From Candidatus Zixiibacteriota bacterium (GTDB lineage: Bacteria; Zixibacteria; MSB-5A5; UBA10806; 4484-95): a DNA stretch of 27,236 nt. Each line of letters starts with the position of its first letter. Position 1 is the first letter of the stretch. Below are positions 10,559 through 15,643 of this stretch, piece by piece. The stretch lies in NCBI GenBank assembly GCA_029932605.1, contig JAOZPT010000025.1:6937-34172 (forward strand), given 5' to 3'. The notes beneath the pieces are model-generated. The model was not told where the DNA came from, ran no database searches, and saw only the letters and a program-made list of their open reading frames with translations. The position numbers and the translations under genes are program-made.

Positions 10559-12220
10559 ATGACTTCCAATAACTTTTGTATTCACCCAGAATATCAAGAT
10601 AAGCTATGTTGGATTTCTATGTTGTCCAATCCTGAGCCTGAAATCACCGATCAGCAAGGCCCTTCTGCTATACAGGATGACATAACGATTTGTTATGAAT
10701 GCCAGCGGTTCAAAACCAATACTGAAAGGGGCTTTGGAAGGCGATCTGCTGATCAGGCTATTGGCCTCACCGTTATCAAGCTTTTAGAACAACTTTTACT
10801 TAAAAAACGGAACCTCCAGCAAACGGCTGACGAACTAAAGAAAACGATAGAACAACTAAATCTTCTTAAAAATATTACCGATGCTCTTGCCCGAAGCGAA
10901 AGCCTTGAAAAAAGCCTGAAGATTATTCTTACCGGCGCATCCTCTGGGGATGCTTTTGGTTTTAATCGAGCGGCGGTTTTTTTGGTAAACGATAATAACA
11001 ACATGCTTGAGGGAAAATGTGCTATCGGACCAGAAAGCCCGGAGGAAGCCAACAGGATTTGGGAGGAGATATCGAAAATTCCCTTAAACCGTCTTTTAGA
11101 GGAAATTCTTAACGGAGAAGAATTCGTACCCTGTTCCCTTGAGACGATGATTTCCAAAGTAAGGGTTCCCATGTCTGATAAGGAAAATCCCCTTATTAAA
11201 ATCCTTAACGATTCCAAGGAAAAAGTAATAGATATAAAAAAGGAGTTATATCCGGATTTTGATATGTCGTGGTGGCCTGGGTTTGAGAAGGCCGTAGCAG
11301 TGCCTTTAATCTCCGAGGGAAAACCGCTGGGACTGATTTGGGCAGATAACGCTATCACCGGTAAACCGATCACCAACGAATTGATCGATTCTTTAAAATC
11401 TTTAGCCAATGCCTGTGCCTCAGGTTTGCAGAACGCTATTTTACATCAGAAACTTTACGCCCAGCTCAAAGAGCTTGAAAGAGTACATGAACTTTTCAAA
11501 TCGAATCAAGCTTATCTCGTTCGTCATGAAAGACTTGCTGATATTGGAATGCTGGCCACTAAAGTAGCCCATGAATTTAGAGTTCCTCTGGTCACGATCG
11601 GCGGCTATGCTCGAAGGATGAAAAAAACCATAGGCACCGAAAACTTCGACAGGCTATCCGTAGACGTTATTATTTCGGAGGTCGACAGGTTATCAAAAAT
11701 CACCTCTGATATTCTGGAATATTCACGGGGTGCTAAGCTCAATATAAAAGAGTGCGATCTGAATACCGTAATTAATGATTCGTTAAACCAGCTCAAAGAT
11801 AAGTTGGAAACCTCTAGCATCATACCCGAAAAAAAGTTTGTAACCAAAAAACTTACGATCAAAGCTGATCCACAGAGGTTAAAACAGGTGATATTCAATC
11901 TTGTTGATAATGCCGTTGACGCTATGAACAATGGCGGTAAACTTACCGTAAGAACATCAAAGAAAAAAGGATACGTTGTTTTGGATATAAAAGATACAGG
12001 GGTTGGTATAAGTAATAAAGAGCTTGAAAACCTGTTCAAGTTATTTTACACGACTAAGGAGAAGGGATCCGGGTTGGGGTTAGCCGTTTCGAAAAAAATT
12101 ATTGATGACCATGGTGGTTATATAAGTGTGGATTCTCAGCCAGGTGAAGGCACTGTTTTTTCTGTTCATATTCCAGCTTTAAACGGGCTTGAAATGAATA
12201 AGAACAATCAGATACATTAG
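10559..12220 (+). CDS. Cytoplasmic GAF-domain sensor histidine kinase (HisKA + HATPase_c) with Cys-rich N-terminus
   Basis: GAF (GFNRAAVFLV...AVPLISEGKPLGLIWADN), H-box AHEFRVPL, N-box QVIFNLVDNAVDAM, G1 DTGVGI, F-box FYTTK, G2 GSGLGL; no TM helix seen. Confidence 0.93.
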   Translation: MTSNNFCIHPEYQDKLCWISMLSNPEPEITDQQGPSAIQDDITICYECQRFKTNTERGFGRRSADQAIGLTVIKLLEQLLLKKRNLQQTADELKKTIEQLNLLKNITDALARSESLEKSLKIILTGASSGDAFGFNRAAVFLVNDNNNMLEGKCAIGPESPEEANRIWEEISKIPLNRLLEEILNGEEFVPCSLETMISKVRVPMSDKENPLIKILNDSKEKVIDIKKELYPDFDMSWWPGFEKAVAVPLISEGKPLGLIWADNAITGKPITNELIDSLKSLANACASGLQNAILHQKLYAQLKELERVHELFKSNQAYLVRHERLADIGMLATKVAHEFRVPLVTIGGYARRMKKTIGTENFDRLSVDVIISEVDRLSKITSDILEYSRGAKLNIKECDLNTVINDSLNQLKDKLETSSIIPEKKFVTKKLTIKADPQRLKQVIFNLVDNAVDAMNNGGKLTVRTSKKKGYVVLDIKDTGVGISNKELENLFKLFYTTKEKGSGLGLAVSKKIIDDHGGYISVDSQPGEGTVFSVHIPALNGLEMNKNNQIH

Positions 12221-12262
12221 GAATATAATGAAAATTGAAGATAAAAGAAATGGAGGTCGGGC

Positions 12263-12616
12263 TTGCCCAGAGTTTTAGTGGTTGAGGATGAAAAGTATCT
12301 TCTCGAACTATATAAAAATGAGTTGGAGGATGAAGGTTATGAAGTGATACCGGTTGACAATGGCAATGAGGTTTTAGAAAAGGTAAAAGATTTTCATCCG
12401 GAAATAGTTATCCTTGATATCCGCCTAGGGGGAACAGAGGGTCTGGAAGTATTAGAGCAGATAAAAAGTTATGACATGAAACTTCCGGTTATATTGAATT
12501 CAGCTTATGCAACATATAAGGCAAATTTTTCTTGCTGGATTGCTGATGAGTATGTCGTTAAGTCACCGGATTTGACCGAGTTAAAAACAACTATAAGGAA
12601 GTATATTAAAAATTAA
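12263..12616 (+). CDS. Single-domain response regulator (receiver only)
   Basis: VLVVEDE, ILDIRL (phospho-Asp), SAY, VVKS; TTG start with GGAGG SD; directly downstream of the kinase. Confidence 0.93.
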   Translation: MPRVLVVEDEKYLLELYKNELEDEGYEVIPVDNGNEVLEKVKDFHPEIVILDIRLGGTEGLEVLEQIKSYDMKLPVILNSAYATYKANFSCWIADEYVVKSPDLTELKTTIRKYIKN

Positions 12617-13050
12617 ACAAAAAATTGTTTTTCTTTAAGGGTTAAGCCCGACTATTCATTAAGGCAATTTCGTTTTTTGAAAACAGCACCCAAATCAAAA
12701 GCTTATAGGTATACAGCCAGAAAACAAGAAATCATAAAATAACGGTATGTGTTTATGAGGTTCAAAATCGATTCCGGCTGATGTTAACAAATCGAGCACT
12801 CAAGCACAAGGGGCAGAAACAGCTTATGCTCTCGTTAATCAGAGTTTACGTATAAAAAGATTGAATCTCATAATTCAACCATCCTTGTAATGAAGAGCCA
12901 TGTTGATTTTCTTAGCGATAATAAAGATCACTGGTGAAAATTAGAAATTTGAGAAAATAATATACCCCGATATCCAGTTTGCCCGAAAGCAATCTCCAAT
13001 TTTGATAAGTGGTGTTTCCCAATGAAACAATTAAAGCAATAGCATTTAGT

Positions 13051-13494
13051 TCAAGCTGGGTATTTACCGGATATGTAATCGCTGAGATACCGGTTTTCCG
13101 CTTTGAAATCTTTTAAGAGAGATTTTACTATGTCTCCTATTGAGATTATGCCAGACAACTTATTGTCCTGCAAAATCGGTACATGGCGAATGCGGTTGGA
13201 TGTCATAAGTTGCATAATATATTCGACGTCATCCTCGGGAAAACCAATGATGATATTTTTCGTCATCACTTCACCAACAGCGATTCTCTGCCAACTGCTT
13301 TCATATTTTTCGAAAACCAGCTTTATTATGTCTCTCTCGGTGATTATACCGACAGGACAGTGGCTAGAGTCCACAACGACCAGAGAACCAACTTTATTTT
13401 CAGTGATATTCTGTAGGGCTTGTTTGATAGTGCTATGGGGAGTGATGGTATTAACACCTGAACCTTTTGTTTTGAGTATATCGGCTACTTTCAT
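13051..13494 (-). CDS. Tandem CBS domain protein
   Basis: VGSLVVVD..PVGIITERDI, VGEVMTK, RIRHVPI..LSGIISIGDIVK; AAGGAG SD. Confidence 0.93.
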   Translation of the reverse strand: MKVADILKTKGSGVNTITPHSTIKQALQNITENKVGSLVVVDSSHCPVGIITERDIIKLVFEKYESSWQRIAVGEVMTKNIIIGFPEDDVEYIMQLMTSNRIRHVPILQDNKLSGIISIGDIVKSLLKDFKAENRYLSDYISGKYPA

Positions 13495-13724
13495 TTATTG
13501 TCTCCTTGATGGTTAACCTTGTTGTTACTTTTCTAAAACTTATACAAACTCAACTTTCAAATATTTTTGCATCCTAATCATTAAAGAATAGATTTTTGAT
13601 ATATCAGCATTATCATTTGATCCATATTGATGGCAGGTTATGATGTTCTGAAATTTTGGAGATGTATAAACCTATCTGAATGAATTATAGTTTTATTTAA
13701 TAGAAAAATTATTGTTACATTGAT

Positions 13725-13751
13725 TAATGTTGATTATAAACCATCCGATAT
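13725..13751 (+). promoter_or_regulatory. Sigma28-like promoter of the zinc-finger microprotein gene
   Basis: TAATGTTG-N11-TCCGATAT versus the extended consensus TAAAGTTT-N11-GCCGATAA. Confidence 0.45.
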
Positions 13752-13783
13752 AAAATATTGAATCATAAATCAGGAGGGTGAAA

Positions 13784-13882
13784 GTGAGAAAGACACGCTG
13801 CAAAGCCATAACCAAAAACAAAAAACGCTGCAAGAACTGGGCTCGGGGCAATTCCAAATATTGCTGGGTCCACAGACATTAG
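13784..13882 (+). CDS. 32-aa basic C-x9-C-x10-C-x2-H zinc-finger microprotein (DUF5763-like)
   Basis: AGGAGG SD 6 nt before GTG; MRKTRCKAITKNKKRCKNWARGNSKYCWVHRH*; followed by an intrinsic terminator. Below the ORF-track size cut-off. Confidence 0.8.
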   Translation: MRKTRCKAITKNKKRCKNWARGNSKYCWVHRH

Positions 13883-13907
13883 TTTTTGAAAGCAAGGTAT
13901 TAAGTAT

Positions 13908-13938
13908 AGGGTTTAGTTGCTAACTAAACCCTTTTTTT
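13908..13938 (+). terminator. Rho-independent terminator
   Basis: AGGGTTTAGTT-gct-AACTAAACCCT perfect 11-bp stem followed by a T run, 25 nt after the microprotein stop. Confidence 0.85.
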
Positions 13939-14027
13939 ACTTTTGTCTTAAGTTGCCAAAGATACATCATCAAATTTTTTTACATGATAATAAATATAAT
14001 CAGGAAGTTCAATAAATAATTATAAGG

Positions 14028-14199
14028 TCACTGGGATTCAGAGTATCTTTTTTGGGGATACGAATTAAGTATTATAGCCGCGATTTGTTCGGGAAGTATG
14101 TTTGTGCTGTTTATTATAAGATCATAAGCGTTGGGAATGTTTTTTTTCAAATTCCCATCTCTTGATTTGCTGGTCAACGATAAGTTCGATCGCTTTCAT
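14028..14199 (-). pseudogene. Remnant of a cytidylate-kinase-like family gene (N- and C-termini only, out of frame)
   Basis: GGGGAGG SD plus ATG gives MKAIELIVDQQIKRWEFEKK...; in the +1 frame across an A8 run the sequence continues IPNAYDLIINSTNILPEQIAAIILNSYPQKRYSESQ*. Both parts resemble the termini of cytidylate-kinase-like proteins (by recall, not by search). Confidence 0.55.
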
Positions 14200-14263
14200 A
14201 AATGACCTCCCCATCTCTATAAAAAGCAAATCTTGCATTTTATATAACAGTGCCGTCCTTTAC

Positions 14264-14281
14264 GTCAATTATATAATTGAC
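14264..14281. promoter_or_regulatory. Perfect 18-bp palindrome GTCAATTATATAATTGAC (divergent -35 boxes or operator)
   Basis: Exact self-complement between the divergent remnant gene and the serpin; each half contains TTGAC. Confidence 0.55.
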
Positions 14282-14407
14282 TTAAATAATTCCAATATGG
14301 AACAATTTGCATGTATTTGAATTAGAAAATTTAAGGGAAATATGTTGCTTATCGTATTTAAAACTGGTAAAATCCCAAATGCATGTAAATAATAAAGGAG
14401 GTTTATA

Positions 14408-15643
14408 ATGTGTAAGTCGTCTATCTTTTTTGTAGTTATGTTGGTTGGTGTTTTGATTATGTTTTGTTCTAAAAATTCTATCTATGCCGAGGAGGATTCT
14501 CCACGAGAACTTAACGCGGTTGAGAGCAAGCTTGTAAAAGCGGACAATAAGTTTGGATTTAACATATTTAAGGAAATAGTTAATGAGGACAAGGACTCGA
14601 ATGTATTTATCTCGCCTTTGTCTATATCGATGGCTCTGGCAATGACCTACAACGGTGCCGATGGTAACACCAAACAGGCGATGGCCTCGACACTTGAACT
14701 GTCTGATCTATCCATTACGGGGATGAATGAATCCTATCAAAGCATGATTGAGTTATTAATGAACCTTGATCCTCAGGTGATATTTCAGATAGCGAACTCT
14801 ATATGGTATCGTCAGGAATACGATGTCGAACATGATTTTGTTGACCTGAACAGGACACATTTTAATGCTGAAATCAGGGCTTTGGATTTCAATAAGCCGA
14901 ATTCTGTTAATATAATCAATAACTGGGTTGATAAAAACACCAACGGTAAAATTAAGGAGATCGTGCAGCCACCAATTGACCCGCAAACCGTGATGTATTT
15001 AATTAACGCTATCTATTTCAAGGGCACCTGGACCTACGAATTTGATAAAAAAGATACCCGTGATGACAAGTTTAATTTAGTTAACGGTTCTCAAGTACCA
15101 TGTAAAATGATGGTTCAGGAAAAGAGATTTCGTTATTTTGAGAATGATGAGTTTCAGGCTATCGATCTGCCATATGGAGATAAAAAATTCAGTATGATAA
15201 TTTTTTTACCTAAACCCAAGGTCGATGTAAATACCCTAATAAGTATGCTCGATTCAGAGGATTTTGATATCTGGCTTGGTCGTTTTTCAAAGCGGTCTGG
15301 AACATTATATTTACCCAAATTCAAAATTGAATATGGGCTATCTTTGAACAGAGCCTTGAGCGCTCTTGGTATGGGAATAGCCTTTACCGACAAAGCTGAT
15401 TTTACAAAGATAAATAAAAGGGGCGGTTTATTCATAAGCGAGGTTAAGCATAAGACTTTTATTGAGGTCAATGAAGAGGGTACCGAAGCGGCTGCGGTTA
15501 CCAGCGTGGGAATGATGAAAACCTCAGTGGGTCCAACCCCGTTCGTTATGCGTCTTGACCGGCCTTTTATATTGATGATTAGAGAGAACCATTCGAGGAC
15601 AATCCTTTTTATGGGGAAAATAATGGAACCAACCCTGGGTTGA
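14408..15643 (+). CDS. Serpin (serine protease inhibitor), exported
   Basis: NVFISPLSI, INNWV..NTNGKI, LINAIYFKGTW, LPKFK, hinge VNEEGTEAAAVT, DRPF; N-terminal signal peptide; AAGGAGG SD. Confidence 0.96.
   Translation: MCKSSIFFVVMLVGVLIMFCSKNSIYAEEDSPRELNAVESKLVKADNKFGFNIFKEIVNEDKDSNVFISPLSISMALAMTYNGADGNTKQAMASTLELSDLSITGMNESYQSMIELLMNLDPQVIFQIANSIWYRQEYDVEHDFVDLNRTHFNAEIRALDFNKPNSVNIINNWVDKNTNGKIKEIVQPPIDPQTVMYLINAIYFKGTWTYEFDKKDTRDDKFNLVNGSQVPCKMMVQEKRFRYFENDEFQAIDLPYGDKKFSMIIFLPKPKVDVNTLISMLDSEDFDIWLGRFSKRSGTLYLPKFKIEYGLSLNRALSALGMGIAFTDKADFTKINKRGGLFISEVKHKTFIEVNEEGTEAAAVTSVGMMKTSVGPTPFVMRLDRPFILMIRENHSRTILFMGKIMEPTLG

Follow-up and report, generated by a model that had tools for sequence, protein, structure and literature searches.

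In the genome of a Candidatus Zixiibacteriota bacterium, a 32-codon open reading frame (ORF) stands by itself between a flagellar-type promoter sequence and a hairpin with a T tract. The locus raises the question of whether so short a frame is a gene and, if so, what its product might do. The window considered here is the whole stretch of 27,236 nt that was analysed, from contig JAOZPT010000025.1 (GCA_029932605.1), and all coordinates below refer to it. An initial annotation had described the locus as a transcription unit for a zinc-finger microprotein, and its promoter, Shine-Dalgarno (SD) sequence, GTG start, reading frame, Cys/His spacing, charge and terminator agree with the DNA position for position and base for base. 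The unit consists of the following features:

13725..13728, plus strand: predicted -35 element TAAT of a sigma28 (FliA)-type promoter (TAAT, TAAA or TTAT at a 15-nt spacer in 12/13 orthologues)
13744..13751, plus strand: predicted -10 element TCCGATAT of the same sigma28-type promoter (NYCGATA 39-53 nt upstream of the start in 13/13 orthologues)
13772..13777, plus strand: SD sequence AGGAGG, 6 nt upstream of the GTG (6/6 match in 13/13 orthologues)
13784..13882, plus strand: ORF for a basic 32-aa microprotein, GTG start and TAG stop, under purifying selection
13799..13873, plus strand: Cys3-His finger C6-x9-C16-x10-C27-x2-H30, a predicted zinc knuckle with a Mcm10-ZnF1-like fold (four invariant ligands; model; fold match)
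13908..13938, plus strand: intrinsic terminator with a perfect 11-bp stem, 3-nt loop and T tract (hairpin and T run in 13/13 orthologues)

The spacer between TAAT and TCCGATAT is 15 nt in the window. The terminator is a stem-loop at 13908-13932 followed by six T, with a fold of -15.6 kcal/mol (z -3.65) that one of 200 shuffles equals. The encoded protein has 12 Lys/Arg and no Asp/Glu in its 32 codons, five residues ahead of the first cysteine, no Lys/Ala tail and a C-terminus of H-R-H. A second in-frame GTG at 13778 abuts the SD sequence and is unlikely to be the start codon. The upstream neighbour is a divergent CBS-domain gene (13051-13494, minus strand), and the downstream neighbour, 525 nt 3' of the microprotein gene, is a full-length bacterial serpin gene (14408-15643, plus strand; Pfam 411.6 bits) with a hydrophobic, signal-like N-terminus. 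A response regulator gene (12263-12616, plus strand), itself preceded by a GAF-histidine kinase gene, lies 1.2 kb upstream; its nearest relative in the same genome (50% over 92 aa) is the regulator that opens the flagellar cluster on contig C10. A known structured RNA at the locus was considered and dropped, as an Rfam scan of 12200-14500 gave chance-level matches only.

Taken singly, the promoter pattern, the terminator and the cysteine motif are each within chance. The promoter pattern has five occurrences in the window where 2.3 would be expected (at least five turn up in 12 of 100 shuffles), 2.5 kb hold one terminator against 1.5 expected, and a loose C-C-C-H motif appears 20 times in the genome's six frames, just two of these being members of the finger family described below. 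A third own-genome match (C82), without the cysteine motif and internal to a long reading frame, was rejected. We judge the gene to be real because relatives retain the unit in its entirety and their differences follow a coding pattern. A six-frame search gave matches in 22 of 41 related genomes, and a profile search found the family in 135 of 285 Zixibacteria genomes, leaving 150 with no match. Thirteen loci, the window included, form an orthologous, monophyletic subclade (UFBoot 99) in a midpoint-rooted tree of 104 unique fingers, from which L017 was left out and in which the shortness of the alignment (90 nt) limits the deeper branches. A profile of 11 subclade members, which favours its own members, scored at least 67 bits in 13 of the 285 genomes, with the next match at 49 bits, and these 13 genomes all belong to two families of one Zixibacteria order. 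Every orthologue has an ORF of 32-35 aa, a start 5-6 residues ahead of Cys1, a 6/6 SD sequence and a hairpin with a T run. The description of a stand-alone single-finger gene in the initial annotation holds: with the start fixed, the SD sequence perfect and a terminator present in all 13, a truncated fragment of a longer gene is ruled out.

The pattern of substitution points the same way. Over 29 codons and 78 non-independent pairs of the 13 orthologues, pN is 0.118 and pS 0.627 (pN/pS 0.19), and 26 of 29 third positions are variable, compared with 12 and 12 at the other two. Other frames over the finger are often open, and one reverse frame is free of stops in 13/13; despite this, the synonymous pattern tracks the microprotein frame. 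Eleven metagenome loci added seven new orthologues, the rest being near-identical to the window, a repeat of L004, a different longer ORF, or cut off. One could still regard the ORF as an unexpressed chance product or decaying fragment, pointing to the chance-level frequency of each element, the open alternative frames and the absence of the protein from a predicted-protein collection. Against this stand the synonymous excess, the fixed positions of start, SD sequence and stop, and promoter boxes kept around divergent spacers in the 13 orthologues and the seven new ones, and we consider a fragment scarcely credible. The 32-residue ORF is almost certainly a real protein gene.

Of ten queries against that collection of 15 billion proteins, three were present; the window protein, the paralogue in its genome and three subclade relatives were absent. 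The expectation that standard gene callers would miss such a gene stands for the subclade and fails elsewhere, where a protein search returned 449 clusters of short relatives that had been called. Among the 120 matches listed of these clusters, all contain the 25-residue finger, and all lack a Pfam mark and are unnamed or titled 'hypothetical protein'. One apparent relative, a 2056-aa Salmonella adhesin (P0126) clustered with a 36-aa family member, has no finger and is a clustering artefact.

The sigma28 consensus comprises a TAAA-like -35 element, a 15-nt spacer and a GCCGATAA-like -10 element. The pattern that we used, TWAW-N15-NYCGAWA beginning 55-75 nt before the start, was derived from these same loci, which are kin and non-independent. 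It is present in 12/13 subclade loci, 1/77 other stand-alone members, 0/15 remaining loci and 5/1761 own-genome ORFs; the count covers 105 unique loci of 118, and five of the 15 'remaining' loci are short stand-alone ORFs misfiled by a composition filter. By eye, the box lies at N15 in six of the seven new metagenome orthologues and at N16 in one, and L186, one of the seven, has the full TAAA-N15-GCCGATAA. A position-weight scan built from 12 promoters left the window site outside the top 60 of 193, and the fixed pattern with spacer and background controls was used because that scan was too unspecific. The genome encodes FliA (TIGR02479, 276 bits vs a cut-off of 189.6) in its flagellar cluster, after flhA/flhF-like genes. 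The same box precedes the flagellin gene (PF00669) as well as genes that we take to be flgL, motA and a flagellar-cluster response regulator. It has 67 intergenic matches genome-wide, and with the 15-nt spacer it precedes 39 ORFs, whereas each of the other spacer lengths from 11 to 20 nt gives 13-26. Box conservation, the FliA gene, the flagellin box and the spacer enrichment together make it very probable that FliA reads this promoter, and the sigma28-like call in the initial annotation is supported. Other candidate readers in the genome are a second alternative sigma factor (C97) and several shorter sigma factors that are probably of the ECF type. Co-occurrence gives the link between FliA and the microprotein no support, because all 41 relatives tested match FliA (40 above the cut-off), while the subclade is found in 13 of 285 genomes.

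Upstream of the sigma28 box, 11 of 12 relatives carry a 17-bp dyad, YGTTHCARWWDTDRACR, at a fixed distance, and the window copy has lost it. The dyad lies 44-46 nt from the -35 box in L005-L014 and L016, and 52 nt from it in L004; it is also seen at L187-L192, at L137 and at G000:C10 (about 2183-2199). In G004 it stands 44-48 nt upstream of the sigma28 box of a flagellar-cluster response-regulator gene, and the corresponding copy in the window's own genome is degenerate. The dyad is likely to be the site of a co-regulator of some FliA promoters.

The best Pfam match of the microprotein is DUF5763 (PF19067; E 3e-4, residues 4-30 on profile positions 2-27 of 39). The likeness to DUF5763 proposed from the letters alone holds as far as the Cys3-His core, which aligns, and falls short as an assignment, the score of 20.6 bits lying below the gathering cut-off of 26.3; six of 20 aligned family members match DUF5763 at E<=0.1. 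The protein also matches zf-TRM13_CCCH weakly (E 0.014), zf-primase weakly (PF09329; E 0.02, 15.1 bits, below the cut-off of 28.8), HGGxSTG at 14.6 bits (NF041373; cut-off 29), without the motif after the His, and the GvpO N-terminal domain at 21.8 bits (NF045806; cut-off 52). WRC matches five of the 20 aligned members (best E 0.003) and not the window protein, which has K-R-C at its second cysteine and no W-R-C, and family members also touch zf-C3Hc3H. The four Cys/Cys/Cys/His ligands are invariant in 64/64 aligned members. Non-ligand Lys, Thr, Trp and Ser positions are near-invariant too, the Trp being strongly conserved in the subclade. To judge by this ligand pattern, the motif very probably is a zinc finger.

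AlphaFold models have a pLDDT of 88.8 for the window protein and 81.7 for the paralogue, and the sole PDB matches of both are chains of the Mcm10 internal domain (Foldseek E 0.7-3.2, rmsd 0.9-1.7 Å over 29-30 columns), the match of the window model being weak (E 1.3-3.2), at an rmsd of 1.3-1.8 Å over 29-32 residues when the VIA alignment is included. VIA aligned all 32 residues of this predicted model with Mcm10 376-408 at a weak score (Z 3.4, rmsd 1.8 Å), and identity to the Mcm10 finger is about 28-31% over 29-32 residues. The paralogue model had no match at Z>=2 in a wide VIA search, and two profiles searched against PDB sequences had none at E<=10. The weak fold match of the models agrees with the weak zf-primase match, and homology to the Mcm10 CCCH finger is likely.

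Within a wider finger family, the ORF represents the tail-less, Trp-rich type. In its own genome, the 41-aa paralogue has a short Lys-rich tail and a TTGACA box. The other 77 stand-alone loci put 3-101 residues N-terminal to the same finger, and the longer of these extensions contain a Lys/Ala repeat. A TTGAC[AT] element lies 55-85 nt upstream at 39 of these 77 loci vs none of the 13 in the subclade, and each subclade finger has 2-3 Trp vs none in 86 of 88 other short members. The sigma28 box and the 2-3 Trp per finger are the hallmarks of the subclade. Forty further Zixibacteria loci picked from profile matches, some of which duplicate earlier loci, are all stand-alone (29-99 aa); none belongs to the subclade, and two have a sigma28-like box. 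Beyond Zixibacteria, record titles assign stand-alone members to Nitrospirota, where they are numerous and mostly short-tailed, and to Glassbacteria, Gemmatimonadota, a deltaproteobacterium and Thermoplasmata archaea. Ignavibacteria are not counted as a host phylum, since records so titled match genomes of the Zixibacteria phylum. ESM Atlas leads, all under 0.9, include clusters of 34-47 aa, some with zf-TRM13_CCCH or DUF5763. The bare finger is therefore a recurring form in a large family and not peculiar to the window locus.

Longer relatives are common as well. HMMER returned 887 representatives, and the best 150 of these are mostly longer, multi-finger proteins. A domain scan of 101 longer proteins (95 of the best 150 and six from the loci) found fusions to DnaJ in 10, to a non-specific endonuclease in five, and to T5orf172 and WS/DGAT in two each; nuclease fusions thus make up seven of the 101, and TPR, ankyrin and trypsin-like domains are also partners. 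Many of these proteins match several finger families jointly, which suggests that DUF5763, WRC, zf-TRM13_CCCH and their kin form one finger superfamily. Among the 118 loci no conserved partner gene was seen, and neighbours differ between families: orthologues in family f2 mostly sit between a GAF-histidine kinase gene and a PD40 protein gene, and the neighbours of the window copy, L004 and L016 are unlike these.

Among described finger types, DUF5763 shares the Cys3-His core, and longer relatives of the window protein exceed its cut-off; the best-scoring of these are mostly multi-finger stretches, whereas the window has one finger with its own promoter and terminator. The plant WRC (PF08879), zf-C3Hc3H, zf-TRM13_CCCH, HGGxSTG and GvpO N-terminal fingers are similar Cys3-His fingers and are mostly domains of larger proteins. 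They cross-match family members weakly and match the same longer proteins jointly, but the window protein reaches the cut-off of none of them and has neither W-R-C nor the HGGxSTG tail. WRC is described as binding DNA sequence-specifically (PMC10613670), and in the account of human Trmt13 cited here, deletion of the CCCH finger left tRNA binding almost unchanged (PMC8922252). Mcm10 ZnF1 (PDB 3ebe, 3h15, 7y01) likewise combines basic and aromatic residues on its surface, and its CCCH fold is the weak match of the window model. In the descriptions cited, Mcm10 binds single- and double-stranded DNA irrespective of sequence on a surface shared by its OB-fold and CCCH finger, by way of lysines and aromatic residues (PMC5333062, PMC6731595); the window protein differs in being bacterial and stand-alone, with no OB-fold or replisome context. 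The one-domain zinc-finger microproteins of Haloferax volcanii also stand alone at <70 aa, and 5 of 14 purified Cys-motif microproteins are listed in that report as holding no zinc (PMC11241148). These differ in being archaeal and in having two C(P)XCG ligand motifs, of which the window protein has none, and there is no visible sequence relation.

Histone-H1-like proteins offer a second comparison, as the paralogues of the microprotein carry Lys/Ala tails of up to about 100 residues. Chlamydia HctB/Hc2 is one such H1-like protein. Chlamydia sigma28 drives hctB and, within the survey cited, binds hctB and tsp only (PMC12282069); in the family described here, the sigma28 box belongs to the tail-less form instead. 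In Streptomyces DdbA, the H1-like domain, which condenses DNA, is linked to a DksA-like one (PMC3643593); in the present family, the second domain is instead a predicted Mcm10-like finger.

The explanation that we prefer, tentatively and with confidence somewhat short of even, is that a one-gene unit transcribed by FliA gives a 32-aa zinc knuckle that binds nucleic acid, probably DNA, with low specificity. FliA-RNA polymerase would read TAAT-N15-TCCGATAT while the late flagellar genes are on, the short one-gene mRNA would terminate at the hairpin, and the peptide would fold on a single Zn2+ ion as a Mcm10-type CCCH knuckle. The Lys/Arg loop T-K-x-K-K between Cys1 and Cys2 would grip the backbone, and 2-3 Trp and one Tyr would stack on bases. 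The protein might then serve as the tail-less, motility-stage counterpart of the sigma70-type paralogue with its H1-like Lys/Ala tail. That the microprotein binds nucleic acid of some kind is, in our estimate, probable, and given such binding, DNA or the nucleoid is modestly favoured over RNA as the target. This is supported by the fold match to Mcm10 only, together with the basic and aromatic DNA surface of Mcm10, and by the nuclease fusions; HctB is a precedent for a small basic DNA protein driven by sigma28, and DdbA for the H1-like domain. It is weakened by the low fold scores, by the partnership of the Mcm10 finger with an OB-fold that is absent here, by the dispensable Trmt13 finger and by DnaJ, no nucleic-acid enzyme, being the commonest fusion partner. 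The zinc-free Haloferax microproteins weaken the metal-folding step. Any nucleoid role would be accessory, since the family goes unfound in 150 of 285 genomes and the window's own genome has two HU-family genes.

The same knuckle could instead bind RNA, as a translational regulator of flagellar mRNA or a small ribosome-associated factor. Tryptophans in such number suit stacking on single-stranded bases, the zf-TRM13_CCCH match points toward tRNA-associated fingers, and the size and charge of the microprotein are like those of small ribosomal zinc proteins. The flagellar cluster also has genes that we take to resemble CsrA and FliW, which would mean RNA-level control there. However, the nearest solved fold is that of a DNA-binding finger, the Trm13 finger was itself dispensable for tRNA binding in the account cited above, and by eye no ribosomal-protein-like gene occurs among the neighbours of the 118 loci; we regard an RNA target as unlikely, if plausible. 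Rather less likely, in our view, is a protein-binding module that regulates RNA polymerase, a sigma factor, a chaperone or an acidic flagellar protein, its basic charge meeting an acidic partner. The fusions to DnaJ, WS/DGAT, TPR, ankyrin and trypsin-like domains would fit such a module, as would the likeness to the GvpO N-terminus and the conserved Trp of the subclade, which lies on the surface. Neighbours that vary between families, with no constant partner gene, speak against it, and the near absence of acidic residues and the H1-like tails of the paralogues point to a polyanion as the target.

A further alternative is a sequence-specific DNA regulator like plant WRC, whose site might be the 17-bp dyad that precedes the microprotein promoter in relatives. 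In its favour are the WRC matches among aligned members, the specificity described for WRC and the steady spacing of the dyad in 11/12 relatives. The window copy has nevertheless kept the gene and lost the dyad, K-R-C stands in place of W-R-C, and 32 residues leave no dimerisation or activation region, so that we find such a regulator improbable. We are just as doubtful that the protein serves mainly to store or buffer zinc, or to sense metal or redox state, with a fold that gives way when zinc is lost. Four invariant ligands on a minimal scaffold would suit such a role, and so would one relative, L017, in which a hairpin lies after a TGA at the third cysteine and whose genome encodes SelB. 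One metal per peptide makes for poor storage, though, non-ligand residues are near-invariant too, and the locus has a sigma28-like promoter, with no metal-transport genes seen among its neighbours.

L017 (G009:C113:6316-6420, minus strand) is a subclade-like ORF from a bin with 9% contamination, and its 6-bp hairpin, with an AGUU loop, lies ~26 nt downstream of the TGA and precedes a terminator. This single case may be either a nonsense mutation or a selenocysteine ligand; none of the 40 further Zixibacteria loci has a TGA at a cysteine.

A literature search, with subscription journals mostly outside its coverage, found no description of this finger family or of Zixibacteria small zinc-finger proteins, and no paper on DUF5763 or HGGxSTG. 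Neither the finger type, as a module, nor the class of single-finger microproteins is new; the window protein appears akin to the Mcm10/DUF5763-type finger, yet by cut-off it falls in none of these families. What seems new is the FliA-linked, Trp-rich, tail-less subclade, its contrast with the sigma70-type tailed paralogues and the predicted Mcm10-like fold. The protein is a likely non-structural addition to the flagellar sigma regulon in an uncultured phylum. At 32 residues, it could be synthesised as a test case for a finger type that cross-matches DUF5763, WRC, Trm13-CCCH and Mcm10, which opens the question of whether one such finger alone can fold and bind DNA or RNA. The family to which it belongs, conserved in 135 of 285 Zixibacteria genomes, has been omitted or left nameless by annotation.

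A bolder proposal, which we think unlikely, is that Zixibacteria and several other deep-branching lineages share a class of nucleoid proteins with an H1-like tail of tunable length on a single Mcm10/WRC-type knuckle. In one order, a tail-less copy rich in Trp would have come under the control of the flagellar sigma factor, and motile cells would exchange the tailed form for a DNA binder of protamine size. On this proposal, the protein would in addition be the smallest version of the eukaryotic Mcm10 finger to stand by itself. The window's own genome encodes tail-only, finger-only, tail-plus-finger and tail-plus-SWIB proteins, which hints that these basic proteins are a modular, chromatin-like set. 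A Lys tail is no proof of a nucleoid role, however, because unrelated proteins of this genome carry such N-terminal tails, including one of 951 aa that presumably resembles pyruvate phosphate dikinase. A tail with no finger is seen at G000:C1:14254-14358 (plus strand), a 34-aa ORF of Lys/Ala/Thr repeats only, with a perfect SD sequence and a downstream hairpin.

The finger also varies in copy number and in setting. G004 and G012 have five matches each (one of those in G004 a fragment), G015 four and G147 three; L091, L093 and L094 are multi-copy examples, and one Nitrospirota chromosome has three separate copies with identical protein. As a terminal appendage, it is found on longer proteins (L022, L027, L023, L076, L080, L071 and L136), the carriers being signal-bearing small proteins, a TPR protein, a wax-ester synthase, a 508-aa archaeal protein and two-finger Bacteroidota proteins. 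A long-tailed subfamily (L069, L070, L073, L074, L079, L105, L107, L113, L121, L122 and L124), with tails of 22 to 101 residues, occupies one constant genomic slot. At loci with enough flank, the gene upstream of this slot encodes up to about 900 aa, and a convergent gene on the other side encodes about 890-975 aa.
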